A stretch of DNA of 64,000 nucleotides, taken from the NCBI RefSeq assembly GCF_050920415.1, contig NZ_CP169309.1, one strand, 5' to 3'. This DNA comes from Escherichia coli. Its GTDB lineage: Bacteria; Pseudomonadota; Gammaproteobacteria; Enterobacterales; Enterobacteriaceae. Shown here one piece after another: positions 1 to 35,476 of the stretch. The notes beneath the pieces are model-generated. The model saw nothing but the letters and a program-made list of their open reading frames with translations, ran no database searches and had not been told where the DNA came from. The translations under genes and the position numbers were made by a program. Positions within the stretch are counted from its first letter, which is position 1, and each line of letters starts with the position of its first letter.

Positions 1-342
1 ACTTAGGACTAACGACGTTTCAACACAGGTTCGGGTTTACTCATCTCACTGTATCTCACATAGGATCAGATCTCGTCTGATCGTTCCCCCTGCGCTCACT
101 ACCATGGCTCTTTACCACAGCAGCCGGGGTTGTTTGGGACCGACTTCCGACAGCAGATCCCGGTGGGCCTGCCACCATCTCTTCACAAGCTTATGCTTAT
201 TACATGCAAAACGTCCCGTTTTGCATCTTTGTGCCTACGGCACACGATGATCTTTCCCTGTACCACCTCCTCAGGAAGTGGTTTAAGGTTAATAACAAAA
301 ATACCAATCATTTTAATAAAATATGACGAGTATTTATTTTCA

Positions 343-615
343 TTATATTTTAAAGCATCCTAGCCCCTGCGATGCTCGCCATCGTTTTAACTCATCAACA
401 ATCCCTTGGGGACTATCTTCTCTATCTTCAGATGGATAGAATATCAAATCACTACCATCTGGGTGCTGAGTGATTCTAATAAAATGACTTACAAGATCAT
501 CAATAAACTTCGACAATTTATCGCCATGCAATTCCTCAGGTGGTTCAAAAAAATTATTTAGAAGTTCGATAAATTCATCTTCCGTATAATCTTCTAGATT
601 ATTTTTAAACTCCAT
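343..615 (-). CDS. Colicin-DNase-type immunity protein (Im7/Im9-like), 90 aa; candidate cognate immunity for the VgrG-fused DNase
   Basis: Translation MEFKNNLEDYTEDEFIELL...HPDGSDLIFYP...DSPQGIVDELKRWRA shares, from memory, the DYTE-EF, HPSGSDLIYYP and DSPSGIV..WRA motifs of Im9/Im7. AGGAGG Shine-Dalgarno 6 nt before the ATG; start lies 14 nt after the vgrG stop; AT-rich codon usage. Confidence 0.85.
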   Translation of the reverse strand: MEFKNNLEDYTEDEFIELLNNFFEPPEELHGDKLSKFIDDLVSHFIRITQHPDGSDLIFYPSEDREDSPQGIVDELKRWRASQGLGCFKI

Positions 616-629
616 TACTACCTCCTTTT

Positions 630-3600
630 TTATTTATGCAATCGTATGTGGTTTTTAGGTGTGTTTACTCTAAGATTATCAATATCATAGACTTCTCCCC
701 CATATTGGATTTCGTCAATATGATGAATTTCAAATGTACCTCGCCCCCCAACTCTTTGTCTTGATATAGTATAAGGTGCGCGTCCACGCTTTATCAACGT
801 TTGGTTAGCTTTATTAAATTGGCTCAATAGTTCTGGACATTCACCTACAGCAGTCCAGAAAGCTGCCCTGAATTCATCAAAATTGTTAAATGACTTACTC
901 CGAAGTTTATTTGCGACCTGTTGTGGAATTGGCACTCCTAAGCTTTTCCCCGCCTGCGACAGCCATCTTCCTGTACCTGCTAACACCTCCCCCTTACCTG
1001 TTACTGTTCCCGCTTCATCCCTTGCAGTTTTCAGATACACATATATTGGTGTTAATTCCGCACCGTCAGGAAAGACAAGTATCCAGTCATTAAAATTTCG
1101 CTCCTCCGGCATTGGAGAAGGCGGCGTGGTGATATCTGTTTTTTCATCGGGTATCGGATTAACATAAATATCAGGTAGATCAACTGGTTCGACAGGAGTT
1201 CCGGTGTGTATGGGCTGCTCTGAACCTTCTGGCTTTGCAGGCGTCCAAAATATTTTTGGTCCCGAATCAGACACAGGTGAAAATTCATAACGGGAAAATT
1301 CCTTATTCCACTCCATCAATGCTACCCGAACACCTTCAAGTTCCGAACCTGCGGGTGTGTGGTATCCGTATGTTCTCAATTCACCAGCAGTATTCCGCTG
1401 AAAGAGAAAGCGCGCCCGCGTAGCTGCCGTCTCTCCAGATTGCGCTTTACGACGTAGCTCATTTTCGAGCCACTGTTCATCCCGTCCAGGAACTTTATCA
1501 CTACCTTCACCGGCAGGTATTGGATATAGTGCTGATACTAGAACACCAAGGGCTGGCACCGTTTTTGATACACTTAAAAAACCTTCTCCACCCCATGCCC
1601 CTAATGTTCCCCATACGCGAGTTAAAACTCCCGCAGACTGTTCCGCCGCTAGTGGAACCGCAACACCCGCTGACGCAACTGTCATTTCCCCCGTCAGTGA
1701 GTTCGCTCCTGAAGTTTTTTTTGCTGACTGCGCAAGTTGCTCCACTTCATCGTCATGATAGTGTGTACCATAGCCGCAACAGTCATCCTCCACTGGCTGG
1801 GCAAATAGAGCCATATCACCAAAATGTTTCGATGGCTCCATGGTCGTACCAGCATCAGTGCAGCCTTTCTCCTTCAGACAAGATTTTGCGTATACAGGAA
1901 TTACCAGTTCATCTGAATCGTCCTTGTCTTCTTCTCCACCTTCTGATTCATCCTCATCACTAGGCTCTCCGTCATTCCCGCCGCCAGCATTCCCTCTGTC
2001 ATACTGCTCGTCAGCCAGAGCGTCCATAACTGCCGGTTGTAGTGTATTTATCGGCGTCCCCGGACTGCCCCCGCCATTCAGATTTATTTTCGGTCCGACA
2101 ATATCCACACCACCAGAATGAACGACCACAAACGAGCCCCCCACCTTCAGGCTTATCCGGCTGCTGCTCTCCAGCACGATATCCCCGTCCACCTTGATCC
2201 CCAGCGCGCCACTCACCTTCTCCGCCAGGTCGCCCTTCACCTCCAGACTGTGCGTTCCCTCCACCAGACTGATATGGTTCCCCGTCGTCTTATGCTCCTG
2301 CTTCCCTTCCACCGTCACTTTACGGTCGTTTCTGACATACAGGCCGTCATCGTGACTCACGCTCACCGTCCGGTCATTCGTCACCTTCAGCGTCTGGTCA
2401 TTACGTACCGTTATGCGCCGGTCGTTCGCCACCGTGATACTCTGGTCGTGACCCCCTTCTTTTCTGGTGCCGACCTCAACCGTCTGCCCCTTCACCACCC
2501 TTATCTTCTGGTCGTTACCGATGGTCTCCGTATGGTCATGCTTCACGTCCGTCCGCCGGTCGTTAAGCACCTCCGTGTCCATGTTCTTCTGCGCGTGGAT
2601 ATACACCTGCTCACTGTCCGTCGCATCCTCGAAACGCAGTTCATTAAAGCCGCTTCCTTTATAGGTCTTCGAGCGGATGGTCATCTGCGTCCGCGTGCCC
2701 GGTAAATCCCCCGGTGAACGGTTGTCCTCATGGTATGTCCGCCCCGTCACAATGGGCTGGTCCGGGTCGCCGTTCAGAAAGTCCACTATCACTTCCTGAC
2801 CCACACGCGGTATCGCCAGATTGCCGAACCCCGGTCCCGCCCATGCCTGCGACACCCGTATCCAGCATGAACTCTCCTCCGTCATCCCGTGATAACGGTC
2901 CCAGTGAAACTTCACCCGTACCCGGCCATGTTCGTCGCAGAATATCTCCTCGCCCTTCGGCCCGGTCACAATGGCACTCTGCGGGCCGTCCACCTTCGGC
3001 TTCGGCAGCGGCGCGTGACGCCACGTCCTGTCTGCCGGTATCACCTCAAACTGATTGCTCAGTGTCGTCCCTTCACCGTGACTCCCGTGCAGCGCCTGCG
3101 GCTGTTCTCCCCGCAGTGTGCTTCCCACAACCTGCCATTCCCGGTTCAGCGTCCCTGACGGATGGCCCGTCAGCCGGAACCGCGTTCCCGGCCACAGTCG
3201 CGCCGTGTTACACACCCCGCTCGCCGTCTCCGCCCCGTTCCGCCACCCTTCCGTCTGGTAACGCGCAAAATCCTGGCCATGCTGCTCATCCTTGAAACGC
3301 CCCGGATAATCAAATATCTCGTACTGCGTTCCCTGCCCGTTCAGGCTCTCCCCGTCATGGCTGTAGTACCCCGGCCACCCCGGCGTTTTGAACGTATAAT
3401 CCTGCGTCTCCACCGACGCCACGCTTATCTGCGCACGGTAACGGAAGTCGCTGATGTACTCTGTCGTGCCTCCGGTCGTGGTATTCGGGTTAAACGCCAG
3501 CGCCCCCATTCCCGTCAGCCCCGCCACGTCATCACACACCGCCAGCTTCTGTTCCGGCCCGTCCTGACTGCAGCGTTCATAAAAGAAGATACCTTCCTCC

Positions 3601-4085
3601 GCCCACAGCCGGGTCAGGAATGTCAGGTCGCTCTCCCCGTACTGCACGCAGAACTCCCGCGCCGGGTGCGCCTCATAGAACAGCGGCATCCACGCCGTCA
3701 CCCCGTTCTCTCTCAGAAGCTGTGCTGATATCGTCCCTATGTCCTGCTGCTGGAAGATACGGAAGTTCTGCCGTAACCCTGCCCGCCACAGCGGCGGGCT
3801 GATGCTCAGGGAATAACGCATCTGCCAGTCGTTGTTCTCACCGAGCTGCACCTCCGTCACGATACCGCTGACGTAACGCTGCGGGATATCACCCTGCCAG
3901 ACCGTCAGCACCGCGCTCTTCTCCAGAAAATCCTCCGCCGTCAGGTCAGACAGCCCGCTGGCGATATCCACATCCAGGATGAACGGCGTGCAGTGGTGCT
4001 GGTACAGACGGAAGCTCACCACCGCCGTCGCCATCTCCACGATACCGGCCACCGACAGCGTGAAACGTAATCCTTCTGAGGACAT
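630..4085 (-). CDS. vgrG: Evolved VgrG (T6SS spike, gp27/gp5-like core) with about 430 aa C-terminal extension ending in a colicin E9-like HNH DNase domain
   Basis: Six-frame ORF 630..4118 (1162 aa). N-terminus MSSEGLRFTL... is VgrG-like, so the likely start is the ATG at 4085 with a GGGG motif upstream (ORF-track alternative 4118). The middle has gp5-type repeats (VANDRRITVRNDQTLKVTNDRTVSV...). The C-terminus ...FDEFRAAFW...RQRVGGRGTFEIHHIDEIQYGGEVYDIDNLRVNTPKNHIRLHK matches the colicin E9/E7 DNase H-N-H motif by eye. Confidence 0.88.
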   Translation of the reverse strand: MSSEGLRFTLSVAGIVEMATAVVSFRLYQHHCTPFILDVDIASGLSDLTAEDFLEKSAVLTVWQGDIPQRYVSGIVTEVQLGENNDWQMRYSLSISPPLWRAGLRQNFRIFQQQDIGTISAQLLRENGVTAWMPLFYEAHPAREFCVQYGESDLTFLTRLWAEEGIFFYERCSQDGPEQKLAVCDDVAGLTGMGALAFNPNTTTGGTTEYISDFRYRAQISVASVETQDYTFKTPGWPGYYSHDGESLNGQGTQYEIFDYPGRFKDEQHGQDFARYQTEGWRNGAETASGVCNTARLWPGTRFRLTGHPSGTLNREWQVVGSTLRGEQPQALHGSHGEGTTLSNQFEVIPADRTWRHAPLPKPKVDGPQSAIVTGPKGEEIFCDEHGRVRVKFHWDRYHGMTEESSCWIRVSQAWAGPGFGNLAIPRVGQEVIVDFLNGDPDQPIVTGRTYHEDNRSPGDLPGTRTQMTIRSKTYKGSGFNELRFEDATDSEQVYIHAQKNMDTEVLNDRRTDVKHDHTETIGNDQKIRVVKGQTVEVGTRKEGGHDQSITVANDRRITVRNDQTLKVTNDRTVSVSHDDGLYVRNDRKVTVEGKQEHKTTGNHISLVEGTHSLEVKGDLAEKVSGALGIKVDGDIVLESSSRISLKVGGSFVVVHSGGVDIVGPKINLNGGGSPGTPINTLQPAVMDALADEQYDRGNAGGGNDGEPSDEDESEGGEEDKDDSDELVIPVYAKSCLKEKGCTDAGTTMEPSKHFGDMALFAQPVEDDCCGYGTHYHDDEVEQLAQSAKKTSGANSLTGEMTVASAGVAVPLAAEQSAGVLTRVWGTLGAWGGEGFLSVSKTVPALGVLVSALYPIPAGEGSDKVPGRDEQWLENELRRKAQSGETAATRARFLFQRNTAGELRTYGYHTPAGSELEGVRVALMEWNKEFSRYEFSPVSDSGPKIFWTPAKPEGSEQPIHTGTPVEPVDLPDIYVNPIPDEKTDITTPPSPMPEERNFNDWILVFPDGAELTPIYVYLKTARDEAGTVTGKGEVLAGTGRWLSQAGKSLGVPIPQQVANKLRSKSFNNFDEFRAAFWTAVGECPELLSQFNKANQTLIKRGRAPYTISRQRVGGRGTFEIHHIDEIQYGGEVYDIDNLRVNTPKNHIRLHK
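633..1004 (-). other. HNH (beta-beta-alpha-metal) colicin-type DNase toxin domain, the last ~124 aa of VgrG
   Basis: HH...N...H arrangement (EIHH, NTPKNH, RLHK) and a preceding KSLGVPIPQQVANKLRSKSFNNFDEFRAAFW segment, collinear with the colicin E9 DNase domain as remembered. About 38% GC by eye, versus about 60% for the VgrG core. Confidence 0.75.
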
Positions 4086-4260
4086 ATAAACCCCATAGCT
4101 ACCGCACTCATGGTGCAAACCATACGGGCTTATAAGAAAGGCTTAAGTGAGATATCTGCCAGATAGCAACTATTAGGAAAATATTTATATATATTTCATG
4201 AATATATATTTCGGTTGGTATAACGGTGTCTAAATATTCCTCTGAACATCTTCCTGATAC

Positions 4261-4298
4261 AAAAAAACCGCCAGCGTTTCCGCTGGCGGTTTTCTTTG
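4261..4298 (-). terminator. Rho-independent terminator downstream of ybfA (bidirectional hairpin), insulating ybfA from the vgrG promoter
   Basis: A-run, then 9-bp perfect stem ccgccagcg/cgctggcgg with tttc loop, then T-run. Confidence 0.75.
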
Positions 4299-4315
4299 AA
4301 CGTAATATTTAGCAA

Positions 4316-4522
4316 TCAGTAAAAATCACCGGTTGCCTTTTCGGCCTGATCCATCCACACCGGTTTATCGCTGGTTTTCGACCAGACGCGGTGCAGGTAG
4401 CTGTAAAAGCGGGCGCGGTCTTTCCAGAAAAGCATGAAAGGCAGCGCCAAAACGCCCGCTGCAACCGCATAAGTACGGCGTAAAAAGATAAGCCATGCAG
4501 GATATTCTCTGTAGAGTTCCAT
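4316..4522 (-). CDS. ybfA: YbfA, DUF2517 small membrane protein (68 aa)
   Basis: Translation [29 protein letters not shown]... matches K-12 YbfA from memory; position adjacent to kdp. Confidence 0.8.
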
Positions 4523-4834: not shown

Positions 4835-4924
4835 GTGAGTGCAGGCGTGATAACCGGCGTATTGCTGGTGTTTTTATTACTGGGTTATCTGGTTTATGCC
4901 CTGATCAATGCGGAGGCGTTCTGA
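4835..4924 (+). CDS. kdpF: KdpF, 29-aa K+-ATPase subunit
   Basis: GTG start after GGAGG; [29 protein letters not shown]; stop TGA overlaps the kdpA ATG (tgATGg). Confidence 0.8.
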
Positions 4925-6597
4925 TGGCTGCGCAAGGGTTCTTACTGATTGCCACGTTTTTACTGGTGTTAATGGTGCTGGCGCGCCCTTTGGGCAGTGG
5001 GCTGGCGCGGCTGATTAATGATATTCCTCTTCCTGGTACGACGGGCGTTGAGCGCGTACTCTTTCGTGTACTCGGCGTCTCTGGCCTTGAGATGAACTGG
5101 AAGCAGTATCTCTCTGCCATTCTCGGCCTGAACATGCTGGGGCTGGCGGTGCTGTTTTTTATGTTGCTCGGTCAGCACTATCTACCGCTTAACCCGCAGC
5201 AGTTACCGGGGCTGTCGTGGGATCTGGCGCTGAATACTGCCGTCAGCTTTGTCACTAATACCAACTGGCAATCTTATAGCGGTGAAACCACATTAAGCTA
5301 TTTCAGCCAGATGGTGGGCTTAACGGTACAAAACTTTCTTTCTGCCGCCAGCGGGATTGCGGTGATTTTTGCCCTCATTCGTGCATTTACCCGCCAGAGC
5401 ATGAGCACACTCGGCAATGCCTGGGTCGATCTGCTACGCATCACGTTATGGGTGTTAGCCCCGGTGGCGTTGTTGATCGCGCTGTTTTTTATTCAACAAG
5501 GTGCGTTGCAAAACTTTCTTCCCTATCAGTCGGTTACGACTGTTGAAGGGGCGCAACAGCTGTTACCAATGGGTCCGGTGGCTTCTCAGGAAGCGATCAA
5601 GATGCTCGGCACTAATGGCGGCGGTTTCTTTAATGCCAACTCATCGCATCCGTTTGAAAACCCGACCGCACTGACCAACTTCGTGCAGATGCTGGCGATC
5701 TTCTTGATCCCAACAGCGCTGTGCTTTGCCTTTGGTGAAGTGGCAGGCGATCGCCGCCAGGGGCGCATGTTGCTGTGGGCGATGTCAGTGATTTTTGTCA
5801 TCTGCGTAGGCGTGGTGATGTGGGCAGAAGTTCAGGGTAATCCTCATCTGCTGGCGCTGGGTGCGGACAGCAGCATCAATATGGAAGGTAAAGAGAGCCG
5901 TTTCGGCGTGCTGGTCAGTAGCCTGTTTGCGGTCGTGACTACGGCGGCTTCCTGTGGCGCGGTGATTGCGATGCATGATTCGTTTACCGCTCTCGGTGGC
6001 ATGGTGCCGATGTGGCTGATGCAAATTGGTGAAGTGGTATTCGGCGGTGTCGGTTCTGGTCTTTACGGCATGATGCTGTTCGTTCTGCTGGCGGTGTTTA
6101 TTGCCGGGCTGATGATTGGTCGTACACCGGAATATCTGGGTAAAAAAATCGACGTACGTGAGATGAAACTGACTGCACTGGCGATTCTGGTCACCCCGAC
6201 GCTGGTGCTGATGGGCGCGGCGCTGGCAATGATGACCGACGCCGGACGTAGCGCCATGCTCAACCCTGGCCCGCATGGTTTTAGCGAAGTGCTGTACGCC
6301 GTGTCATCCGCCGCTAACAACAACGGCAGCGCCTTTGCCGGCTTAAGCGCCAACTCTCCGTTCTGGAACTGTTTACTGGCGTTCTGCATGTTTGTCGGTC
6401 GCTTCGGGGTGATTATCCCGGTGATGGCGATTGCCGGTTCGCTGGTGAGTAAAAAGAGCCAGCCCGCCAGCTCCGGCACGCTACCAACGCACGGCCCGCT
6501 GTTTGTTGGTCTGTTGATCGGCACCGTGTTGCTGGTTGGCGCACTGACCTTTATCCCTGCCCTGGCGCTTGGTCCGGTGGCGGAATATCTCTCCTGA
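4924..6597 (+). CDS. kdpA: KdpA, K+-translocating ATPase channel subunit
   Basis: [16 protein letters not shown]...; the ORF-track 5' extension (4780) is rejected in favour of the ATG overlapping the kdpF stop. Confidence 0.95.
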
Positions 6598-6619: not shown

Positions 6620-8668
6620 ATGAGTCGTAAACAACTGGCGCTATTCGAACCAACACTTGTCGTTCAGGCGCTGAAAGAAGCGGTGAAAAAATTAAACCCG
6701 CAGGCGCAATGGCGTAATCCAGTGATGTTTATCGTCTGGATCGGCAGTCTGCTGACCACCTGTATTAGCATCGCGATGGCAAGCGGCGCGATGCCTGGCA
6801 ATGCGCTGTTTAGCGCGGCAATTAGCGGCTGGCTGTGGGTCACCGTACTGTTCGCTAATTTCGCCGAGGCGCTGGCAGAAGGCCGCAGTAAAGCGCAGGC
6901 CAACAGTCTGAAAGGGGTGAAAAAAACTGCCTTTGCCCGCAAGCTGCGTGAGCCGAAATATGGCGCTGTGGCAGACAAAGTTCCTGCCGATCAACTGCGT
7001 AAAGGCGATATCGTACTAGTAGAAGCTGGCGATATTATCCCCTGCGATGGTGAAGTCATTGAAGGGGGTGCATCGGTCGATGAAAGCGCCATCACTGGGG
7101 AATCGGCACCGGTGATCCGTGAATCCGGTGGCGATTTTGCCTCCGTCACTGGCGGCACGCGTATTCTTTCTGACTGGCTGGTGATTGAGTGCAGCGTTAA
7201 CCCCGGTGAGACATTTCTGGATCGGATGATCGCGATGGTGGAAGGCGCGCAGCGACGTAAAACGCCGAACGAGATTGCCCTGACCATTCTGCTGATTGCC
7301 CTGACTATCGTCTTTTTACTGGCAACCGCCACGCTGTGGCCGTTTTCCGCGTGGGGCGGTAATGCAGTCAGCGTAACGGTACTGGTGGCGCTGTTGGTCT
7401 GTCTGATCCCAACCACTATTGGCGGCCTGTTGTCAGCGATCGGCGTCGCCGGAATGAGTCGGATGCTGGGCGCGAATGTGATTGCCACCAGCGGACGTGC
7501 AGTTGAAGCGGCGGGCGACGTGGACGTCCTGCTGCTGGATAAAACCGGTACCATCACCCTCGGTAACCGTCAGGCATCAGAGTTTATCCCCGCGCAGGGC
7601 GTAGAGGAAAAAACGCTGGCCGACGCAGCACAACTGGCTTCGCTGGCCGACGAAACGCCGGAAGGCCGCAGTATTGTGATCCTCGCCAAGCAGCGTTTTA
7701 ACCTGCGCGAGCGCGATGTGCAGTCGCTTCACGCCACTTTTGTACCGTTTACTGCGCAAAGTCGAATGAGCGGGATCAATATCGACAACCGTATGATCCG
7801 TAAAGGTTCTGTCGATGCCATTCGCCGCCATGTTGAGGCTAACGGTGGTCACTTCCCTGCCGATGTTGATCAAAAAGTCGATCAGGTTGCGCGTCAGGGG
7901 GCCACGCCGTTGGTGGTGGTGGAAGGTTCCCGTGTGCTGGGCGTTATTGCGCTGAAAGATATCGTCAAAGGCGGTATTAAAGAGCGCTTCGCCCAGCTGC
8001 GCCAAATGGGCATAAAAACGGTGATGATTACTGGCGATAACCGTCTGACTGCCGCCGCCATTGCTGCGGAAGCGGGCGTCGATGATTTTCTCGCTGAAGC
8101 GACACCGGAGGCCAAGCTGGCATTGATCCGTCAGTATCAGGCGGAAGGCCGTTTGGTGGCGATGACCGGCGACGGCACCAACGATGCTCCGGCGCTGGCG
8201 CAGGCAGATGTCGCGGTGGCGATGAACTCAGGTACTCAGGCGGCGAAAGAAGCGGGCAATATGGTGGATCTCGACTCTAACCCGACCAAGTTGATCGAGG
8301 TGGTGCATATTGGCAAACAGATGCTGATGACCCGTGGCTCGCTGACCACCTTCAGCATTGCCAACGATGTGGCGAAATACTTCGCCATTATTCCGGCGGC
8401 GTTCGCGGCAACGTATCCGCAGTTAAATGCGCTGAACATCATGCGCCTGCATTCGCCCGACTCCGCCATTCTCAGTGCGGTCATTTTCAACGCCTTGATT
8501 ATCGTCTTTTTGATTCCCCTGGCGTTAAAAGGCGTGAGTTATAAACCGCTTACCGCTTCTGCCATGTTGCGCCGTAACTTATGGATTTACGGTCTGGGTG
8601 GGCTGCTGGTGCCGTTTATTGGTATCAAAGTCATTGATTTACTGCTGACCGTTTGCGGTCTGGTGTGA
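6620..8668 (+). CDS. kdpB: KdpB, P-type ATPase catalytic subunit
   Basis: 682 aa; DKTGTIT phosphorylation motif and [11 protein letters not shown] motif present. Confidence 0.95.
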
Positions 8669-11926: not shown

Positions 11927-12600
11927 CAAACGTTCTGATTGTTGAAGATGAACAGGCTATTCGTCGCTTTCTGCGCACAGCGCTGGAGGGCGATGGGATG
12001 CGCGTTTTTGAAGCCGAAACGCTGCAACGGGGGCTGCTGGAAGCGGCGACTCGTAAGCCAGATTTGATTATTCTCGATCTCGGCCTGCCAGACGGTGATG
12101 GGATTGAGTTTATCCGCGACCTGCGCCAGTGGAGCTCGGTGCCAGTAATTGTGCTTTCCGCCCGCAGCGAAGAGAGCGACAAAATCGCCGCGCTGGATGC
12201 CGGAGCGGATGATTACCTGAGTAAGCCATTTGGTATTGGCGAATTACAGGCCCGTCTGCGCGTTGCTTTACGTCGCCACTCCGCCACCACCGCGCCCGAG
12301 CCGCTGGTGAAATTTTCTGATGTTACCGTCGATTTAGCCGCCCGCGTGATTCACCGCGGTGAGGAAGAGGTGCATCTCACCCCGATTGAATTCCGCCTGC
12401 TGGCGGTGCTGCTCAACAATGCCGGAAAAGTGCTCACCCAGCGCCAGCTTCTCAACCAGGTGTGGGGACCAAACGCGGTCGAACACAGCCACTATTTGCG
12501 TATTTATATGGGACATCTGCGACAAAAACTGGAGCAAGATCCCGCCCGCCCTCGCCATTTTATTACTGAAACCGGTATTGGGTATCGGTTTATGCCATGA
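11923..12600 (+). CDS. kdpE: KdpE response regulator (OmpR family)
   Basis: GTG start overlapping the kdpD stop; [17 protein letters not shown]...; 225 aa. Confidence 0.95.
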   Translation: MTNVLIVEDEQAIRRFLRTALEGDGMRVFEAETLQRGLLEAATRKPDLIILDLGLPDGDGIEFIRDLRQWSSVPVIVLSARSEESDKIAALDAGADDYLSKPFGIGELQARLRVALRRHSATTAPEPLVKFSDVTVDLAARVIHRGEEEVHLTPIEFRLLAVLLNNAGKVLTQRQLLNQVWGPNAVEHSHYLRIYMGHLRQKLEQDPARPRHFITETGIGYRFMP

Positions 12601-12645
12601 ATTATTATTCAATAAATACGCTTAACTAATTATTAATTCATTATT

Positions 12646-12679
12646 AAACCTGCCCCGAAAATTATTATTTGGCAGGTTT
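12646..12679 (+). terminator. Putative kdp operon terminator
   Basis: aaacctgcc / ggcaggttt 9-bp stem with a long AT-rich loop; weak T tract. Confidence 0.45.
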
Positions 12680-12874
12680 AATTTCTTAATGAAAATATAA
12701 CCTACGAAATTACAACATTTAAACAACAAAACAGCATCTAATATGGCGCCACTCTTAATTAACGATTTATTATTTTGGGCGTGATCGTTTTTTGTTGATC
12801 TTCTTCACAGTTTATAGCCTTTTCATGGATAGAATAACTCTACCTTCAACTGACACAGCAAAAGGTAAAGGTAA

Positions 12875-12979
12875 ATGGAAAATAATAACCGCTTAATGCC
12901 TCATATAAGGCGGACAACCCATATCATGAAGTTTGCCCATCGTAATAGTTTTGACTTTCATTTCTTTAATGCCCGTTAG
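12875..12979 (+). CDS. speFL: SpeFL, 34-codon ornithine-sensing arrest/leader peptide of the speF operon
   Basis: ATG...TAG ORF translating MENNNRLMPHIRRTTHIMKFAHRNSFDFHFFNAR, about 300 nt upstream of speF; not in the ORF track (below 60 aa). Differs at two or three N-terminal positions from my memory of the K-12 peptide. Confidence 0.7.
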   Translation: MENNNRLMPHIRRTTHIMKFAHRNSFDFHFFNAR

Positions 12980-13289
12980 TCTTCTGACTAAAGGGCACCC
13001 CAGCGTACAGGTCTCCCTGACTTTAAGCATTACAGGTTAATACCTGTATCCCTCGGTGCTCATATACTGCTAACCCTTTTAAACTCTAAATAATTCAAGT
13101 CGCAGCACTAGCAACTTGAAGTATGACGAGTATAGCCAGTTACCGGGCTGGTCTGGGTTATTGCATCTGCAAAAAGCAAACTACTGATTTATTTATCAGC
13201 GGTGGAGTTTTGCTTTTTTTCCGGCGTGATCGATTTCTCCTTTGAGAAATTGAGGACCTGCTATTACCTGAAATAAAGAGATGAACAAA

Positions 13290-15488
13290 ATGTCAGAATT
13301 AAAAATTGCCGTTAGTCGTTCTTGCCCGGATTGTTTTTCCACTCATCGTGCATGCGTGAATATTGACGAAAGTAATTATATTGACGTTGCCGCCATTATT
13401 TTGTCGGTCAATGATGTTGAACGTGGAAAACTCGATGAAATAGACGCTACTGGCTATGGCATTCCTATTTTTATTGCAACGGAAAATGAAGAACGTGTAC
13501 CAGCAGAATATCTGCCACGTATTACTGGTGTCTTCGAGCATTGCGAATCACGGAAAGAATTTTACGGACGTCAGTTAGAAACCGCCGCCAGCCATTATGA
13601 AACGCAGCTGCGCCCGCCCTTCTTCCGCGCACTGGTCGATTATGTCAATCAGGGCAATAGCGCTTTTGACTGCCCGGGTCATCAGGGGGGTGAGTTTTTC
13701 CGTCGCCATCCGGCAGGCAATCAGTTCGTGGAATATTTTGGCGAAATGCTCTTCCGCTCCGACTTGTGTAATGCCGACGTAGCAATGGGCGATCTACTGA
13801 TTCATGAAGGTGCGCCATGCATTGCACAGCAACATGCAGCTAAAGTGTTTAATGCCGATAAAACGTACTTTGTTTTAAACGGCACCTCCTCTTCCAACAA
13901 AGTGGTTTTAAACGCCCTGCTAACACCGGGTGATCTGGTGCTGTTTGACCGCAATAACCATAAGTCTAACCACCACGGGGCCTTGCTACAGGCTGGTGCA
14001 ACACCGGTTTATCTGGAAACAGCACGTAACCCGTATGGTTTTATCGGTGGTATTGATGCGCACTGCTTCGAAGAAAGTTATCTGCGTGAACTGATTAAAG
14101 AAGTTGCACCGCAACGGGCAAAAGAGGCGCGTCCGTTCCGCCTCGCTGTGATTCAGTTAGGCACCTACGACGGTACTATTTATAACGCCCGCCAGGTGGT
14201 GGATAAAATCGGTCATCTGTGTGACTACATCCTGTTTGACTCAGCATGGGTCGGCTATGAACAGTTTATTCCGATGATGGCGGACTGTTCGCCGCTGCTA
14301 CTGGAGCTTAATGAGAACGATCCGGGTATTCTGGTTACGCAATCTGTACATAAGCAGCAGGCTGGTTTTTCCCAGACTTCACAAATTCATAAAAAAGACA
14401 GCCATATCAAAGGGCAACAGCGTTATGTCCCGCACAAACGCATGAACAACGCCTTTATGATGCACGCCTCCACCAGCCCGTTCTATCCGCTGTTTGCCGC
14501 ACTGGATATTAACGCCAAAATGCATGAAGGTGTCAGCGGTCGTAATATGTGGATGGATTGTGTGGTTAACGGTATTAATGCCCGCAAATTGATCCTCGAT
14601 AACTGTCAGCACATTCGTCCGTTCGTTCCTGAACTGGTGGATGGTAAACCCTGGCAATCGTATGAAACAGCGCAAATTGCGGTTGATCTGCGCTTCTTTA
14701 AATTTGTACCCGGTGAGCACTGGCATTCTTTTGAAGGTTACGCAGAGAATCAATACTTTGTCGATCCGTGCAAACTGTTGCTGACAACTCCTGGCATTGA
14801 TGCACGTAACGGCGAATATGAAGCATTCGGTGTACCCGCGACGATTCTTGCTAACTTCCTGCGCGAAAATGGCGTAGTGCCGGAAAAATGCGATCTTAAC
14901 TCCATCCTCTTCCTGCTGACTCCGGCAGAAGATATGGCCAAACTGCAGCAACTTGTTGCCCTGCTGGTACGCTTCGAAAAACTACTGGAAGCTGATGCGC
15001 CTCTGGCGGAAGTATTGCCTTCCATCTACAAACAGCATGAAGAGCGCTACGCCGGTTATACCCTGCGTCAGTTGTGCCAGGAAATGCATGATTTGTATGC
15101 CCGTCACAACGTGAAACAACTGCAAAAAGAGATGTTCCGTAAGGAACACTTCCCACGCGTCAGCATGAATCCACAGGAAGCCAACTATGCCTACTTACGC
15201 GGTGAAGTGGAACTGGTTCGTCTGCCGGATGCAGAAGGCCGTATCGCAGCCGAAGGTGCGCTTCCTTATCCTCCGGGTGTGCTGTGTGTTGTTCCGGGTG
15301 AAATCTGGGGTGGTGCTGTTCTGCGTTACTTCAGCGCTCTGGAAGAAGGGATCAACCTGCTGCCAGGTTTTGCACCGGAGCTGCAGGGTGTCTATATCGA
15401 AGAACATGATGGTCGTAAGCAAGTTTGGTGCTATGTCATCAAGCCTCGTGATGCGCAAAGCACCCTGTTGAAAGGGGAAAAATTATGA
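13290..15488 (+). CDS. speF: Inducible ornithine decarboxylase
   Basis: MSELKIAVS...; second in-frame ATG chosen (9-nt spacing from AAAGAG); PLP-dependent decarboxylase signature. Confidence 0.95.
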   Translation: MSELKIAVSRSCPDCFSTHRACVNIDESNYIDVAAIILSVNDVERGKLDEIDATGYGIPIFIATENEERVPAEYLPRITGVFEHCESRKEFYGRQLETAASHYETQLRPPFFRALVDYVNQGNSAFDCPGHQGGEFFRRHPAGNQFVEYFGEMLFRSDLCNADVAMGDLLIHEGAPCIAQQHAAKVFNADKTYFVLNGTSSSNKVVLNALLTPGDLVLFDRNNHKSNHHGALLQAGATPVYLETARNPYGFIGGIDAHCFEESYLRELIKEVAPQRAKEARPFRLAVIQLGTYDGTIYNARQVVDKIGHLCDYILFDSAWVGYEQFIPMMADCSPLLLELNENDPGILVTQSVHKQQAGFSQTSQIHKKDSHIKGQQRYVPHKRMNNAFMMHASTSPFYPLFAALDINAKMHEGVSGRNMWMDCVVNGINARKLILDNCQHIRPFVPELVDGKPWQSYETAQIAVDLRFFKFVPGEHWHSFEGYAENQYFVDPCKLLLTTPGIDARNGEYEAFGVPATILANFLRENGVVPEKCDLNSILFLLTPAEDMAKLQQLVALLVRFEKLLEADAPLAEVLPSIYKQHEERYAGYTLRQLCQEMHDLYARHNVKQLQKEMFRKEHFPRVSMNPQEANYAYLRGEVELVRLPDAEGRIAAEGALPYPPGVLCVVPGEIWGGAVLRYFSALEEGINLLPGFAPELQGVYIEEHDGRKQVWCYVIKPRDAQSTLLKGEKL

Positions 15489-16804
15489 GTCAGGCTAAAT
15501 CGAACAAAATGGGCGTCGTTCAGTTAACCATACTGACGATGGTCAACATGATGGGCTCCGGCATCATCATGCTGCCGACAAAGCTTGCCGAAGTTGGGAC
15601 AATCTCAATAATCTCCTGGTTGGTGACAGCCGTAGGCTCAATGGCGCTGGCATGGGCATTCGCAAAATGCGGTATGTTCAGCCGTAAATCAGGCGGTATG
15701 GGCGGTTATGCCGAGTATGCTTTCGGTAAATCCGGTAACTTTATGGCGAACTATACCTACGGCGTCTCGCTGCTGATTGCTAACGTGGCGATTGCTATTT
15801 CGGCAGTTGGTTACGGCACCGAACTGCTCGGCGCGAGTTTGTCACCAGTGCAGATTGGTCTGGCAACCATCGGAGTGCTGTGGATTTGTACCGTGGCTAA
15901 CTTTGGTGGTGCGCGCATTACCGGGCAAATCAGTAGCATTACCGTGTGGGGGGTCATTATTCCGGTGGTAGGCCTGTGCGTTATCGGCTGGTTCTGGTTT
16001 AGCCCGACACTTTACGTTGATTCCTGGAATCCGCATCATGCACCGTTCTTCAGTGCGGTAGGTTCTTCCATCGCCATGACGCTGTGGGCTTTTCTTGGTC
16101 TGGAGTCTGCGTGTGCGAATACTGATGTAGTGGAAAACCCGGAACGTAATGTGCCAATCGCGGTACTCGGCGGTACGTTAGGTGCGGCGGTGATTTATAT
16201 CGTCTCCACCAACGTGATTGCCGGGATTGTGCCCAATATGGAGCTGGCAAATTCAACGGCACCATTTGGTCTGGCCTTCGCGCAAATGTTCACACCGGAA
16301 GTGGGTAAAGTCATTATGGCGCTGATGGTGATGTCCTGCTGCGGTTCGCTACTTGGCTGGCAGTTCACCATTGCCCAGGTGTTTAAATCTTCATCTGATG
16401 AAGGCTACTTCCCTAAAATTTTCTCCCGTGTAACCAAAGTGGATGCACCGGTTCAGGGGATGTTGACCATTGTGATTATTCAGAGTGGATTGGCACTGAT
16501 GACCATTAGCCCGTCACTGAACAGCCAGTTCAACGTGCTGGTTAACCTGGCCGTGGTGACCAATATCATCCCATATATTCTGTCGATGGCGGCATTAGTC
16601 ATTATTCAGAAGGTCGCCAATGTGCCACCATCAAAAGCGAAAGTAGCAAACTTTGTTGCCTTTGTTGGTGCGATGTACAGTTTCTATGCGCTGTACTCAT
16701 CCGGGGAAGAAGCCATGCTGTACGGTTCCATCGTGACCTTCCTTGGTTGGACACTGTATGGTCTGGTATCACCACGCTTTGAACTGAAAAACAAACACGG
16801 TTAA
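15485..16804 (+). CDS. potE: Putrescine:ornithine antiporter
   Basis: 439 aa; MSQAKSNKMGVVQLTILTMVNMMGSGIIMLP; start overlaps the speF stop. Confidence 0.95.
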   Translation: MSQAKSNKMGVVQLTILTMVNMMGSGIIMLPTKLAEVGTISIISWLVTAVGSMALAWAFAKCGMFSRKSGGMGGYAEYAFGKSGNFMANYTYGVSLLIANVAIAISAVGYGTELLGASLSPVQIGLATIGVLWICTVANFGGARITGQISSITVWGVIIPVVGLCVIGWFWFSPTLYVDSWNPHHAPFFSAVGSSIAMTLWAFLGLESACANTDVVENPERNVPIAVLGGTLGAAVIYIVSTNVIAGIVPNMELANSTAPFGLAFAQMFTPEVGKVIMALMVMSCCGSLLGWQFTIAQVFKSSSDEGYFPKIFSRVTKVDAPVQGMLTIVIIQSGLALMTISPSLNSQFNVLVNLAVVTNIIPYILSMAALVIIQKVANVPPSKAKVANFVAFVGAMYSFYALYSSGEEAMLYGSIVTFLGWTLYGLVSPRFELKNKHG

Positions 16805-16821
16805 AAAAGCGAAATAAAAAA

Positions 16822-16848
16822 GGGCGATCTTCCGACCGCCCTTTTTCT
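16822..16848. terminator. Bidirectional terminator between convergent potE and pgm
   Basis: A-run, gggcgatc/gaccgccc stem, T-run. Confidence 0.6.
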
Positions 16849-16860
16849 TATTTAATGTGT

Positions 16861-18501
16861 TTACGCGTTTTTCAGAACTTCGCTAACAATCTCAACCGCT
16901 TCTTTCTCGATCTGCTTGCGATGTTCTTCACCGAGGAAGCTTTCGCAGTAGATTTTGTATGCGTCTTCCGTGCCTGACGGACGCGCGGCGAACCAGCCGT
17001 TGTCAGTCATCACTTTCAGACCGCCAATAGAAGCACCGTTGCCCGGAGCAGCAGTCAGGCGCGCGGTGATCGGGTCGCCTGCCAGGGTGCTGGCGCTCAC
17101 CATTTCCGGAGACAGCTTAGACAGCGCCGCTTTTTGTGCGGAAGTCGCAGCTGCCTGCAAACGGTTGTAGCTCGGCGCACCAAAGCGTTTTGCCAGTTCG
17201 TTGTAGTGTTCCTGCGGGTTCTTACCGGTAACAGCAGTGATTTCCGCCGCCAGCAGACACATAATGATACCGTCTTTATCGGTGGACCACGGCGTGCCGT
17301 CGAAACGCAGGAAGGAAGCCCCTGCGCTCTCTTCGCCGCCAAAGCCGAAACTGCCGTCGAACAGACCATCAACAAACCATTTGAAGCCTACCGGGACTTC
17401 TACCAGCTTACGGCCCAAATCATTGACCACACGGTCGATCATCGCAGATGAAACCAGCGTTTTACCGACAGCAACATCTTTGCCCCACTGCGGACGATGC
17501 TGGAACAGGTAGTTGATCGCCACCGCCAGGTAGTGGTTCGGATTCATCAAACCTGCCGGAGTGACGATACCGTGACGGTCATAATCCGGGTCGTTAGCAA
17601 ACGCCAGATCGAACTTATCACGCAGTGCCAGCAGACCCGCCATCGCACACTCGGAGGAGCAGTCCATACGGATCGCGCCGTCTTTATCGAGGTGCATAAA
17701 GCGGAAGGTTTGATCGACCTGATCGTTAACGATGGTCAGGTTAAGGTTGTAATACTCGCCAATACGCTTCCAGTATTCGATACCGGAACCGCCCAGCGGA
17801 TCAACGCCCAGCGTCAGGCCCGCTTTCTGAATCGCCGCCATATCAACGATATCGGCCAGACCTTCCACAAACGGCTGCACCAGATCCTGCTCTTTCACAT
17901 GACCGGATGCCATCGCTTCGTCAAGGGAGATACGCTTCACGCCTTTCAGGCCATCGGCCAGCAGTGCGTTGGCCCTGTCTTCCACCACTTTGGTGACGTT
18001 AGTATCAGCCGGGCCACCATTTGGCGGATTGTACTTGATACCACCATCTTCCGGCGGGTTATGGGACGGTGTAATCACGATACCGTCTGCCAGCGGGCCA
18101 CCTTTTTTATTGTGAACCAGGATGGCATTGGAAACGGCAGGCGTCGGAGTGAAGCCATTGTTTTCCTGCACAATAACATCTACGCCGTTCGCTGCCAGCA
18201 CTTCCAGTACGGAAATGAACGCAGGCTCGGACAGGGCGTGAGTATCTTTACCCACATAGCAAGGGCCAGTGATGCCGTTTTTCGCACGTTCTTCAGCAAT
18301 TGCCTGAGCGATCGCCAGAATGTGCGGCTCGTTAAAGCTGTGGCGCGCTGCACTGCCACGGTGACCGGAAGTACCGAATTTCACCGCGTGCTCCGCATTC
18401 CCTGCTTCTGGTTTCAGTACATAATATTGCGCCGTCAGTTGGGCGACGTTAATCAAATCACTCTGTTGTGCAGGTTGGCCTGCACGATTGTGGATTGCCA
18501 T
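16861..18501 (-). CDS. pgm: Phosphoglucomutase
   Basis: [22 protein letters not shown]...; active-site TSGHRGS (phosphoserine loop); start at the internal ATG with AAGGA Shine-Dalgarno (ORF-track extension rejected). Confidence 0.95.
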
Positions 18502-18526
18502 TGCTTTGTCCTTTGTCTGCAACGTT

Positions 18527-19072
18527 TTAGATAGTTCCGCAAACCTTCTCAATCAATTCCGCCGGGAATTGCATCGACTGCATGATGTGTTCGATCATGC
18601 TGCATTTACGGCCGGTGTTGGTGTTGGTGATCACCCAATACGGCGTGCCTGGCACATGTTTCGGCTTGGTCTGATTACCATTTTTCAGCAGCGTTTGTTC
18701 ATCTGCCGCAAAGTAAACGCGTGTACGACCGTGCAACGATTCCGTGGCCTCGGCAAACGCCTGGGCGTCAAGAGAATATAGTGTAGACAACAGCAGCATG
18801 AAGCGATTGACCGCTCGCTTTTGCTCTGCGTATTCGTCTGAAAGCAAAAGTTCACGCATTGCGCGAACCTTGTCTTTAATCGTTTTGACCGGCTTCGCTT
18901 CGACGATAGCAGGTGACGCAACGCGAACCTCTTTCGTCACCGGAGCAGCAGGCTGTGATGCGGCGGAAAATTTCAACATACGCCGTAAAATGTCGGATGC
19001 GCTCTCGCCGATATGCTTAGTGTGGCTGGCAATATAGCTGTAGAGTTCATCATCAACTTCAATCGTTTTCAT
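18527..19072 (-). CDS. seqA: SeqA, negative modulator of replication initiation
   Basis: [33 protein letters not shown]...; 181 aa from the internal ATG. Confidence 0.95.
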
Positions 19073-19256
19073 CTTAATCCAGTGCAGTGTCTTAGCTGAA
19101 TACAAGTCGCCAGGAGTATATGAATAAATCCCGGCAGCGGATAGCGTCAAGCCTGGCTTGCAGAAAAACTCGGATTAAACCTTATTTGTTGCAGCCCTGT
19201 GGCACAATGGTCAACATAATACCCTAACCCGACAACGCGAAAAAAAGAACTTTGCC

Positions 19257-20021
19257 ATGAAATTGAATATCCGCGCGCAAACTGCACAAAACCAGCACAA
19301 TAATTCTCCCATCGTTCTTGTCCATGGTCTGTTTGGCAGCCTCGACAACCTTGGCGTACTGGCTCGCGATCTGGTAAACGATCACAATATCATCCAGGTT
19401 GATATGCGTAACCACGGTCTTTCCCCGAGAGATCCGGTGATGAGTTACCCGGCGATGGCCCAGGATCTTGTTGACACTCTGGATGCACAGCAGATCGATA
19501 AGGCAACATTTATTGGACACTCAATGGGCGGTAAAGCGGTGATGGCACTGACTGCACTGGCCCCCGATCGCATCGATAAACTGGTGGCGATTGATATCGC
19601 GCCGGTCGACTATCACGTACGCCGTCATGATGAAATTTTCGCGGCTATCAACGCAGTCAGTGAATCCGACGCGCAAACTCGCCAGCAAGCAGCGGCAGTA
19701 ATGCGCCAGCATCTTAATGAAGAAGGGGTGATTCAGTTTCTGTTGAAATCTTTTGTTGACGGGGAGTGGCGCTTTAACGTGCCGGTATTGTGGGATCAGT
19801 ATCCGCATATTGTGGGTTGGGAGAAAATCCCGGCATGGGATCACCCTGCCCTGTTTATCCCAGGCGGCAATTCTCCGTATGTTAGCGAGCAGTATCGTGA
19901 TGATTTACTGACACAATTTCCACAGGCACGAGCGCATGTGATTGCTGGCGCGGGTCACTGGGTCCATGCTGAAAAACCGGATGCGGTATTACGCGCTATC
20001 CGTCGCTATCTCAATGATTAA
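19257..20021 (+). CDS. ybfF: YbfF esterase (alpha/beta hydrolase)
   Basis: 254 aa; GHSMGG nucleophile elbow. Confidence 0.9.
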   Translation: MKLNIRAQTAQNQHNNSPIVLVHGLFGSLDNLGVLARDLVNDHNIIQVDMRNHGLSPRDPVMSYPAMAQDLVDTLDAQQIDKATFIGHSMGGKAVMALTALAPDRIDKLVAIDIAPVDYHVRRHDEIFAAINAVSESDAQTRQQAAAVMRQHLNEEGVIQFLLKSFVDGEWRFNVPVLWDQYPHIVGWEKIPAWDHPALFIPGGNSPYVSEQYRDDLLTQFPQARAHVIAGAGHWVHAEKPDAVLRAIRRYLND

Positions 20022-25967: not shown

Positions 25968-26140
25968 CGTGGATTCCTCAAAGCGTAAACAACGTATAAC
26001 GGCGTATGATCTTATAAGCGGGACAGGCTGACAACTGTTAGTTAGTGAAAATCGAAAATCTCACTGAGATTATGGGGATGATTGATGAAAAAAAAAGCGG
26101 CAGAGAAGATCTCCACCGCTTTTGCCAGTCCTGCGTCATT

Positions 26141-26224
26141 GTTGGATGCGACGCTTAAGCGTCTTATCCAACCTGGACTGAGATTTTGTAGGCCTGATAA
26201 GACGCGTCATGCGTCGCATCAGGC
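26141..26224. repeat. REP elements between glnS and nagE
   Basis: ggatgcgacgcttaagcgtcttatcc and gtaggcctgataagacgcgtcatgcgtcgcatcaggc palindromes. Confidence 0.7.
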
Positions 26225-26234
26225 ATGAAGCAGA

Positions 26235-28181
26235 TTACTTTTTGATTTCATACAGCGGCGTTTGACCCGCCACAACATGACCTTGAGCTTTAATGATAAG
26301 GCCGCTGAAATCGTCGATATTGCTGCAAACCACCGGGCTAATCATCGAACGGGCGTTAGCGTTCAGGTAATCCAGATCCATTTCCAGAATCGGTTGCCCT
26401 GCGCTTACTTGCGCCCCCTCTTCCACCAGACGTTTAAAGCCTTTGCCTTCCAGCGCTACGGTGTCGATACCCATATGGACGACAATCTCAGCGCCTTTTT
26501 CGGTTTCCAGGCAGAACGCGTGATTGGTGTTGAAGATTTTCACGATTGTCCCTGCGGCTGGCGATACGACGATTTTATCCGTCGGTTTCACCGCCACACC
26601 GTCACCCACCGCTTTGCTGGCAAATGCTTCGTCAGGAACCTGATCCAGCGCCACAACATCACCGGTAATCGGCGATACCAGCTCCGCGACAGACACCGCG
26701 TTTGGTACGGCCTGCGGTTTTGCTACAGGCACGGTAGTTGCAGGCGCAGTTTCAGCAGAGGCGGCTGCTACCGGACCACGGGCAACGACTTTCTTCATTG
26801 CATCGCCAATGGATTCCGCTTTCGCGCCAACAATCACCTGAATAGTCTGTTTGTTCAGTTTTACCACCCCAGAAGCACCCAGACGTTTACACATCGCATC
26901 GTTGACGCGAGCTGAGTCAGCCACCGTCAGGCGCAGACGAGTAATACAGGCGTCAATGGCTTTCAGGTTGTCAGTGCCGCCAACCGCAGCAATATAGTTG
27001 GTCGCCAGTTGATTGAGACCTTCTTCAGTGTTGCTGTTGGCTTCTTCAGTAACGATCTCGTCTTCTTTATCTTCGCGACCCGGCGTTTTCAGATTGAACA
27101 TGCGGATAACCACACTGAACACCACGAAGTAGATAGCGAAGAACACAACCCCCATCACCAGCAGCATCCAGACGTTCTGGCTGGCGGCCGGCAGGTTATA
27201 CATCAACGCGTAGTCGATAGCCCCCGCAGAGAAGGAGAAGCCAGCATGGATACCCAGCAGCGTTGCCACAAACAGGCTGATACCCGTCAGCAGTGCGTGC
27301 AGGAGGTACAGCAGCGGCGCAAGGAACATGAACAGGAATTCCAGCGGCTCAGTCACACCGGTCAGGAACGCAGTAACAGCAACAGAAAGCAGCATACCGC
27401 CAACCATCGGACGACGCTCTTTCGGTGCTGCGAAGTACATCGCCAGCGCCGCACCCGGCAGACCGAACATCATAATCGGGAAGAAGCCGGACATGAACAT
27501 CCCCGCGGTGCCGTCACCGGCATAGAAGCGGTTAATGTCGCCGTGGAAAACCGTACCCGCCGCGTTGGTGAATTCACCAATCTGGAACCAGGCGATGGTG
27601 TTCAGTACCTGATGCAGACCGGTTGGGATCAGCAGACGGTTGATGAAACCAAAGATACCGGAACCCAGCGCGCCCGCAGAAACGATCCATTCGCCGCCTG
27701 CATGGATAGCGTGCTGTACCGGTGGCCAGACGTAACCAAAAATGGCCGCCAGCACCAGGCAGAAGAAGCCGGTGGCGATCGGCACAAAACGTTTGCCGCC
27801 AAAGAAGCTCAGGAAATCCGGCAGTTTAATATCGGACCAACGGTTATAGACTGCGCCACCCACCAGACCGGTAATGATACCCGCCAGTACACCCATGTTA
27901 ATTTCTGGGTTGATGGTCACCATCGCTTTGGTTAATACAAAGTAACCTACCGCACCCGCCAGGGCCGCCGCACCTGCGCTGTCTTTCGACCAGCTGGATG
28001 CCACACCGATGGCGAAGATTAATGCGAGGTTATCAAAAATCGCACCGCCCGCCTGGGCAATAAACGCAACGTTAAGTAAATCTGGCTGACCGAATCGCAG
28101 CAACAGTGCCGCCACCGGCAGCACCGCGATAGGGAGCTGTAACGCCCTACCGAGTCGCTGGAAAAAACCTAAAATATTCAT
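26235..28181 (-). CDS. nagE: PTS N-acetylglucosamine-specific EIICBA
   Basis: 648 aa; polytopic N-terminus, EIIB Cys-containing CITRLR motif, EIIA C-terminus. Confidence 0.95.
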   Translation of the reverse strand: MNILGFFQRLGRALQLPIAVLPVAALLLRFGQPDLLNVAFIAQAGGAIFDNLALIFAIGVASSWSKDSAGAAALAGAVGYFVLTKAMVTINPEINMGVLAGIITGLVGGAVYNRWSDIKLPDFLSFFGGKRFVPIATGFFCLVLAAIFGYVWPPVQHAIHAGGEWIVSAGALGSGIFGFINRLLIPTGLHQVLNTIAWFQIGEFTNAAGTVFHGDINRFYAGDGTAGMFMSGFFPIMMFGLPGAALAMYFAAPKERRPMVGGMLLSVAVTAFLTGVTEPLEFLFMFLAPLLYLLHALLTGISLFVATLLGIHAGFSFSAGAIDYALMYNLPAASQNVWMLLVMGVVFFAIYFVVFSVVIRMFNLKTPGREDKEDEIVTEEANSNTEEGLNQLATNYIAAVGGTDNLKAIDACITRLRLTVADSARVNDAMCKRLGASGVVKLNKQTIQVIVGAKAESIGDAMKKVVARGPVAAASAETAPATTVPVAKPQAVPNAVSVAELVSPITGDVVALDQVPDEAFASKAVGDGVAVKPTDKIVVSPAAGTIVKIFNTNHAFCLETEKGAEIVVHMGIDTVALEGKGFKRLVEEGAQVSAGQPILEMDLDYLNANARSMISPVVCSNIDDFSGLIIKAQGHVVAGQTPLYEIKK

Positions 28182-34514: not shown

Positions 34515-34952
34515 TTATTGAGCTGCTTGTTGATTCTGATATGCAGTAAGGAAATGTTCCGGGTTTGCCACATCACTGTTTGACAACTCATCACTGTAGG
34601 CCACCGACCAGGTCGCCTGCTCATCCGGAATATGCAGGCTGCCATTCCCCTCTTTCAGGCGTAATAACTCAAAAGATTTGCCCTTAATTACGGCGGTATA
34701 GGATTTTTCACCTTCCTGTAATGCTTTCACTTTACAGCGAAAAATCTGGCCATCGATGTCATTATCAACATGCGATACCTGAATGAGGGCTTCATTAGAG
34801 GCTTTCGGCCCTATCCGCATCATCCACACCACAGCGCCTTCCTGCCCACGATAGCCAAAAACATATTTACCGATTTCCGGTTTGACCGTATCGGCAAACG
34901 CAGATTGCATAAGTAATAACGCACCCATCAGCGCCGTCATAAAACGCAGCAT
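34515..34952 (-). CDS. Hypothetical secreted protein (145 aa, predicted Sec signal peptide); apparently strain-specific
   Basis: ORF MLRFMTALMGALLLMQSAFA|DTVKPE... with a signal-peptide-like N-terminus and AFA cleavage motif. Sits in the asnB-tRNA spacer, which I recall as much shorter in K-12. No homolog recognised. Confidence 0.5.
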   Translation of the reverse strand: MLRFMTALMGALLLMQSAFADTVKPEIGKYVFGYRGQEGAVVWMMRIGPKASNEALIQVSHVDNDIDGQIFRCKVKALQEGEKSYTAVIKGKSFELLRLKEGNGSLHIPDEQATWSVAYSDELSNSDVANPEHFLTAYQNQQAAQ

Positions 34953-35215
34953 AGTATTCCCTCAATAAATCGCCTGAAGTGGTAGCAGAGATGCAGGCGT
35001 AGCGATCCCTGCCCTGTCCTGTTGCAACGGGCCAGTATTTCATAGATTAATTTCCTACCACTATTGTTGAATTCCGAATTTCATCCTGTATGACAAAAGA
35101 ATGGCTGTAGGGTGGGAAAAAAACACAAAGTAAACAATAATTGACGAATATAGCGCCACGCTGTTCGCAACCTAACCAAACAGTCACTTTCGAGCAATTT
35201 TCCTTGAAAAAGAGG

Positions 35216-35283: not shown

Positions 35284-35360
35284 GGCTACGTAGCTCAGTT
35301 GGTTAGAGCACATCACTCATAATGATGGGGTCACAGGTTCGAATCCCGTCGTAGCCACCA
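35284..35360 (+). tRNA. metT: tRNA-Met (elongator, CAU)
   Basis: ggctacgtagctcag...ctcataat... cloverleaf ending CCA; first gene of the seven-tRNA operon. Confidence 0.85.
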
Positions 35361-35368
35361 TCTTTTTT

Positions 35369-35453
35369 GCGGGAGTGGCGAAATTGGTAGACGCACCAGA
35401 TTTAGGTTCTGGCGCCGCAAGGTGTGCGAGTTCAAGTCTCGCCTCCCGCACCA
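35369..35453 (+). tRNA. leuW: tRNA-Leu (UAG), long variable arm
   Basis: gcgggagtggcgaaattggtag...anticodon loop tttaggt...CCA; 85 nt. Confidence 0.85.
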
Positions 35454-35476
35454 TTCACCAGAAAGCGTTGTACGGA

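Follow-up and report, generated by a model that had tools for sequence, protein, structure and literature searches.

Why are potE and pgm immediate neighbours in one Escherichia coli strain when K-12 carries further genes between them? We addressed this question in a 64,000-nt stretch of the strain's chromosome, referred to here as the window, by comparing it with K-12, with other E. coli genomes, and with outgroups. The initial annotation of the window had counted 56 nt between the two stop codons. It had also placed ybfP and ybfG/ybfH in this interval in K-12, and it read the difference as a strain-level indel in a region that is otherwise syntenic.

The potE–pgm junction in the window

The 56-nt distance was recovered from both the sequence and the open reading frame (ORF) list, with the potE stop codon ending at 16804 and the pgm stop codon beginning at 16861 (Table 1). 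The potE stop codon is TAA (16802–16804), and that of the convergent pgm gene occupies 16861–16863. Upstream of potE lies its operon partner speF, and the two genes overlap by 4 nt in the ORF list. The speF–potE operon is acid-inducible. The identities of PotE, Pgm, and SpeF are all backed by NCBIfam equivalog models. YbfP, YbfG (DUF2625/PRK11408), and the kdpE-like ybfI fragment are all absent between potE and pgm. When the window was compared with K-12 ybfI, the sole match was kdpE itself.

Table 1. Features at and around the potE–pgm junction, in window coordinates.
Feature	Position	Strand	Basis
kdpE 3′ end (stretch copied in K-12 pseudogene ybfI)	12457–12601	+	alignment
speF (inducible ornithine decarboxylase), preceding potE in the operon	13281–15488	+	ORF list; NCBIfam equivalog
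potE (putrescine-ornithine antiporter)	15485–16804	+	ORF list; NCBIfam NF007938/TIGR04299 equivalog, 856 bits; RefSeq annotation of identical matches
potE/pgm spacer, short ('S') junction form	16805–16860	none	sequence; exactly 56 nt between convergent stop codons
Single hairpin, A6-GGGCGATC-ttcc-GACCGCCC-T5	16816–16847	none	terminator scan (− strand); folds; comparison with K-12, N96, and 2020CK-00188
Putative recombinant tract (hairpin right arm and last ~590 nt of pgm)	16836–17449	none	SNP comparison with N96; 4% divergent
pgm (phosphoglucomutase, 546 aa)	16861–18501	−	ORF list; NCBIfam TIGR01132, 1074 bits

A single hairpin with terminator features on both strands

The spacer holds one hairpin, which is unique within the window. 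A run of six A residues (16816–16821) precedes the left arm, GGGCGATC (16822–16829). A TTCC loop and the right arm, GACCGCCC (16834–16841), follow, and the element closes with five T residues (16842–16846). The stem sits 11 nt past the potE stop codon and 13 nt past that of pgm. Folded as RNA, the + strand (potE direction) gives −16.1 kcal/mol (z = −4.06) and the − strand (pgm direction) gives −21.9 kcal/mol (z = −5.46); none of 200 shuffles was as stable in either case. A U-rich tract directly follows the stem on its 3′ side whichever strand is read: T5CTTATTT in the potE direction and T6ATTTCGCTTTT in the pgm direction.

Bidirectional intrinsic terminators are a known class of element where bacterial genes converge. 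The element in the window resembles them: its stem-loop is GC-rich, has an A-tract on one side and a T-tract on the other, and is placed between two stop codons. It differs in that its stem has an A·C mismatch at one position in the potE direction, in place of a G·U pair. Because of this mismatch, the consensus terminator scan fails the + strand and passes only the − strand. The initial annotation had called the element a bidirectional terminator. The stable hairpin and the T-tracts on both strands agree with that name, which remains a structural reading and which the consensus scan supports in the pgm direction only. With intrinsic-terminator features in both directions, the hairpin probably ends the transcripts of both potE and pgm.

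There is no known sRNA at the hairpin. An Rfam scan of 12000–19000 (E ≤ 1) returned no family with a significant match over it. Sub-threshold matches to STnc430, MicX, and ar35 fell far below their gathering scores and were rejected as chance matches.

K-12 carries a long form bracketed by two hairpins

Alignment to K-12 MG1655 and other E. coli genomes showed that pgm and potE are not adjacent in K-12, in agreement with the initial annotation. In MG1655, 1,747 nt separate the two stop codons (interval b0688–b0692). Its annotation places ybfP and the pseudogene ybfG (b0691) in this spacer, together with a further pseudogene, ybfI (b4636); the former ybfG/ybfH is now the single pseudogene ybfG. 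The window is collinear with K-12 on either side of the junction and ~96–97% identical to it overall. The description as a strain-level indel in a syntenic region is therefore apt, with the window being the form without the K-12 segment.

The two genomes share the flanking genes, their orientation, and the convergent layout, and the pgm-side hairpin of K-12 is one loop base off that of the window. They differ in what lies between. In place of the 56 nt and single hairpin of the window, K-12 has a second hairpin after potE, then ybfI, the DUF2625 pseudogene ybfG, the lipoprotein gene ybfP, and a REP element, in this order from the potE-side hairpin to the pgm-side one. Hairpin A (GGGCGATtgaatgATCGCCC) lies 11 nt past potE, and hairpin B (GGGCGATCttgcGACCGCCC) lies after pgm. 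The two form a direct repeat: each copy spans 31 nt, the copies are 81% identical, and 1,692 nt separate them. They have a 13-nt left arm, AAAAAAGGGCGAT, in common. Both hairpins are also present in strains N96 and 2020CK-00188. Depending on the form, they bracket the REP element alone (222-nt form) or ybfI–ybfG–ybfP together with the REP element (~1.74-kb form).

Compared with these longer forms, the hairpin in the window is a hybrid. The spacer corresponds to the hairpin-A side up to and including the left arm, and to hairpin B from the loop onward through the right arm and the pgm-proximal sequence. The potE-side spacer of the window is the same as the hairpin-A side of N96.

A second pair of direct repeats, imperfect, ~43 nt long, and 80–86% identical, brackets ybfI–ybfG–ybfP in the K-12 segment (39–82 versus 1553–1596) and in 2020CK-00188. 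One copy follows hairpin A and the other precedes the REP element. A deletion between these ~43-nt repeats appears to have produced the 222-nt form. In 2020CK-00188 (locus 1–1489), speF is annotated as a pseudogene with an internal stop and ybfG (DUF2625) is intact, the reverse of K-12, where speF is intact and ybfG is the pseudogene.

In K-12, the pseudogene ybfI duplicates ~145 nt of the kdpE 3′ end, to which it is ~90% identical (K-12 locus 6721–6871 against the kdpE 3′ end of the window). This copy suggests that K-12 combines two layouts, kdpE-...-pgm and speF–potE, in a chimeric arrangement. A closer relation of ybfI to the kdpE of genomes without speF–potE was also considered; the alignments, 76–80% identical when padded and ~90% in the core, did not discriminate.

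The short form predominates in E. coli

We then placed the junction among 5,426 complete E. coli genomes, counting the short form where at least 80% of the query was covered in one place. Most of them, 3,196 genomes (59%), have the short junction, and a few of these carry an IS200 insertion (e.g., PE164). The 1,747-nt K-12 segment, at ≥80% coverage, is present in 1,851 (34%). The 222-nt intermediate, made up of hairpin A, the REP element, and hairpin B, was found in two, N96 and one other. About 354 of the 5,426 (about 6.5%) are without speF–potE at this locus, and kdpE is there convergent on pgm or on ybfP–pgm; the operon itself is therefore polymorphic in E. coli. This agrees with the 5,037 genomes in which speF–potE is intact. 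Among the genomes without the operon (e.g., DETEC-C31, locus 4886–5049, and S1-ISR-02-A, locus 3644–4455), kdpE reaches pgm via a REP element and hairpin B, or reaches ybfP–pgm.

At least six structural alleles can be told apart: the short form, the 222-nt form, the ~1.74-kb form, the ~1.74-kb form with IS200, kdpE–ybfP–pgm, and kdpE directly against pgm. In nine long-form members of the strain's clade (e.g., Z0117EC0005, locus 2820–3530), the IS200 element interrupts the A-run that immediately precedes hairpin A, and in PE164 it lies inside the short-form junction. The neighbourhood of the hairpin appears to be a recurrent IS200 target.

Short-form strains of other lineages (O55:H7, O157:H7, ST131, and others) have spacers of 55–56 nt with the same hairpin, GGGCGATCTT(C/G)CGACCGCCC, and PGAP annotates nothing between their potE and pgm genes. 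They differ from the window by 3–7% over 456 nt of spacer and flanks. The polymorphism is already visible in the public annotation of thousands of genomes. A literature search on ybfP and ybfG found no paper on it.

Close relatives carry longer forms, and substitutions cluster at the junction

In all stretches compared, the window and E. coli MFDS1022581 are 100% identical, and 16 genomes are ≥99% identical to the window at 38–46 kb; clade membership is defined by three stretches of the window. Among the matches listed, all relatives at 98.4–99.6% identity over 14000–20000 have the 222-nt or the ~1.74-kb form, some with IS200, and the nearest other short-form genome is 97.7% identical over the same interval. 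The same clade is closest to the window 20–30 kb from the junction. At that distance its sister N96, which carries the 222-nt form, is 100.0% identical over 8 kb. Between K-12 and the clade, the long segment is 94.1% identical and the whole 7.7-kb alignment including it 96.1%. Since the segment has diverged like its flanks, the long form appears to be old and vertically inherited in the clade. From these comparisons, the short form in this strain appears to be a secondary loss within an otherwise long-form clade.

Relative to N96, the window is missing 166 nt between the hairpins and has 27 substitutions across 6 kb. Twenty-five of these fall within 16836–17449, two in 14000–16828, and none in 17450–20000. 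The tract thus defined starts inside the right arm of the hairpin. This clustering from the hairpin onward points to a recombination event ending at the junction.

A search of complete E. coli genomes for a donor of the pgm 3′ tract found no other genome more than 98.1% identical to it. Against all compared sequences the tract is a mosaic, and the SNP table has no single best source. At 16836, in the right arm, the window has C where N96 and 2020CK-00188 have T, and therefore none of the sampled genomes supplies the direct parent sequence. Left of the junction the window keeps GCGAAAT, a spacer variant that, among sampled genomes, it has in common only with its own long-form clade and that sets it apart from five short-form genomes of other lineages. 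The window's junction string is AGCGAAATAAAAAAGGGCGATCTT. Exact-pattern scans of a metagenome collection for the window-specific junction gave no match.

Proposed origin of the short form in this strain

The short form here is one allele of a common structural polymorphism of the E. coli kdpE–pgm interval. We consider it probable that in this strain it arose by recombination between hairpins A and B with loss of the segment between them, probably in the same event that replaced the 3′ end of pgm. The starting point would be an ancestor with the intermediate or the long form. One crossover would have occurred in pgm near 17450–17500. The other would have joined the 13-nt left arm of hairpin A (AAAAAAGGGCGAT) to an incoming hairpin B. 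This would have removed the REP element, or the entire ybfI–ybfG–ybfP block, from between the hairpins, leaving a single hybrid hairpin to serve both potE and pgm. The same event probably exchanged ~0.6 kb of the pgm 3′ end for foreign or mosaic sequence. YbfP (a lipoprotein) and YbfG (DUF2625) would then be absent because the inter-hairpin segment was removed. The repeats, the hybrid junction, the distribution of the alleles, and the SNP tract are observed directly; both the crossover mechanism and the joining of the deletion and the SNP tract into a single event are what we infer from this pattern.

The anatomy resembles that of a deletion between direct repeats. In the long form, the repeats flank the segment that is missing from the window, and the short form keeps one hybrid repeat with a flank from each side. 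Flanking direct repeats of which one hybrid copy is kept are also the likeness to short-homology or REP-associated deletion and to homology-facilitated illegitimate recombination. A recombinant tract that anchors one side, here in pgm, is a further likeness. The mechanism proposed here is read from comparative anatomy. Several observations speak against it. All sampled E. coli short forms of other lineages share the hairpin-B-type junction, so that the short allele circulates and could be imported whole. In addition, the pgm 3′ end is mosaic species-wide, so that the deletion might have arisen independently of the SNP tract. The C at 16836, where N96 and 2020CK-00188 have T, also counts against it.

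Import of the complete short allele is the main rival, though an unlikely one. Here a short-form donor would have supplied the whole junction by homologous recombination (allelic replacement), with no new deletion. The divergent tract in pgm would fit such a replacement, as would position 16738 in potE, which is also specific to the window within the clade. Short-form donors are abundant, and the hairpin with its pgm-proximal sequence is identical to that of some short-form and kdpE–ybfP-form strains. However, left of the hairpin the spacer has the variant specific to the clade, which none of the five sampled short-form genomes carries. There are also no differences from N96 across 15337–16737, so that the left crossover would have had to fall by chance within ~20 nt of the hairpin, and a tract at >98.1% identity is present in no other complete genome.

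Recombination between the hairpins, the reading we prefer, starts from a longer form. A short junction that is ancestral and vertically inherited, with the insertion carried by K-12 and by the strain's relatives, is improbable. One argument for it comes from the outgroups. A Pgm-based scan recovered 80 loci across Enterobacteriaceae, and in none of them does the 10 kb around pgm contain a homologue of YbfP or YbfG; the ybfP–ybfG segment was therefore gained within E. coli. In most loci with the next gene in range, pgm lies against potE–speF–kdpE or directly against kdpE. The spacer is usually short, but some species have one of several hundred nt or longer. E. albertii resembles the window in its 57-nt potE–pgm spacer and its single hairpin with A and T runs, and the short form is, as noted, the more common one in E. 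coli. But the loop and right arm of the E. albertii hairpin are of A type (GGGCGATCgaatGATCGCCC) and its pgm-proximal sequence differs, whereas the window has the B type on an A-side spacer. The cues to the ancestral form for E. coli as a whole conflict: the outgroups are without ybfP and ybfG, yet the short-form hairpin of E. coli is of B type and that of E. albertii of A type. Further evidence against an ancestral short junction comes from within the species. The examined genomes >98% identical to the window carry long or intermediate forms, the long segment and its flanks have diverged to a similar degree between K-12 and the clade, and the SNP tract lies directly against the junction.

An assembly or sequencing artefact that collapsed a longer region is scarcely credible: the junction does lie between short repeats and its exact sequence occurs in only one public genome, but a modern complete assembly would not be collapsed by repeats of only ~13–30 nt, about 3,200 other genomes have the same architecture, and the adjoining SNP tract is not expected from assembly collapse.

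Other differences between the window and K-12

The window departs from K-12 at several other places. Across 12501–14000, which covers the kdpE–speF intergenic region and the start of speF, identity to K-12 is 73–88%, compared with about 96% elsewhere in the window. This region retains the speFL leader peptide (12875–12979), with 2 of its 34 residues differing from K-12. An identity of 89.9% to K-12 over 12001–16844 had raised the possibility of a divergent speF–potE allele. This was rejected when a sliding comparison confined the dip to 12501–14000 and gave 96–98% identity for potE, like the remaining window. Another local dip, to 82%, lies at 26001–26500 and corresponds approximately, by coordinate arithmetic, to the nagE–glnS intergenic region.

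At one end of the window, positions 1–4117 have no match to the K-12 region at 666–745 kb. K-12 has ybfA and rhsC on that side of the kdp operon, and the content of the window differs. A stretch of ~426 nt (34604–35029), between asnB and the metT-leuW-glnUW-metU-glnVX cluster, is without a K-12 counterpart; the seven tRNA genes of this cluster are conserved (35284–35987). The window has no IS5D element at 43364–43371, whereas K-12 carries one between gltI and lnt.

Significance of the locus

The potE–pgm junction is an ordinary presence/absence polymorphism of two accessory genes. The relevance for strain typing that the initial annotation had proposed holds in one respect, since the junction can separate close strains. 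As a lineage marker it is weak: short, intermediate, and long forms occur in one ≥99% identical clade, and the locus is therefore homoplasic. K-12 has a minority form and is not the reference state at potE–pgm.

If the proposed origin is correct, the strain would offer a natural example in which paired terminator-like hairpins mark the ends of a deletion and a recombination tract stops exactly at the junction. More tentatively, the whole kdpE–pgm interval may be a multi-allelic recombination hot spot, in which terminator hairpins and REP elements would act repeatedly as crossover joints. Should this possibility hold, the K-12 arrangement would be chimeric, and ybfI would be the scar left behind by a kdpE 3′ end.
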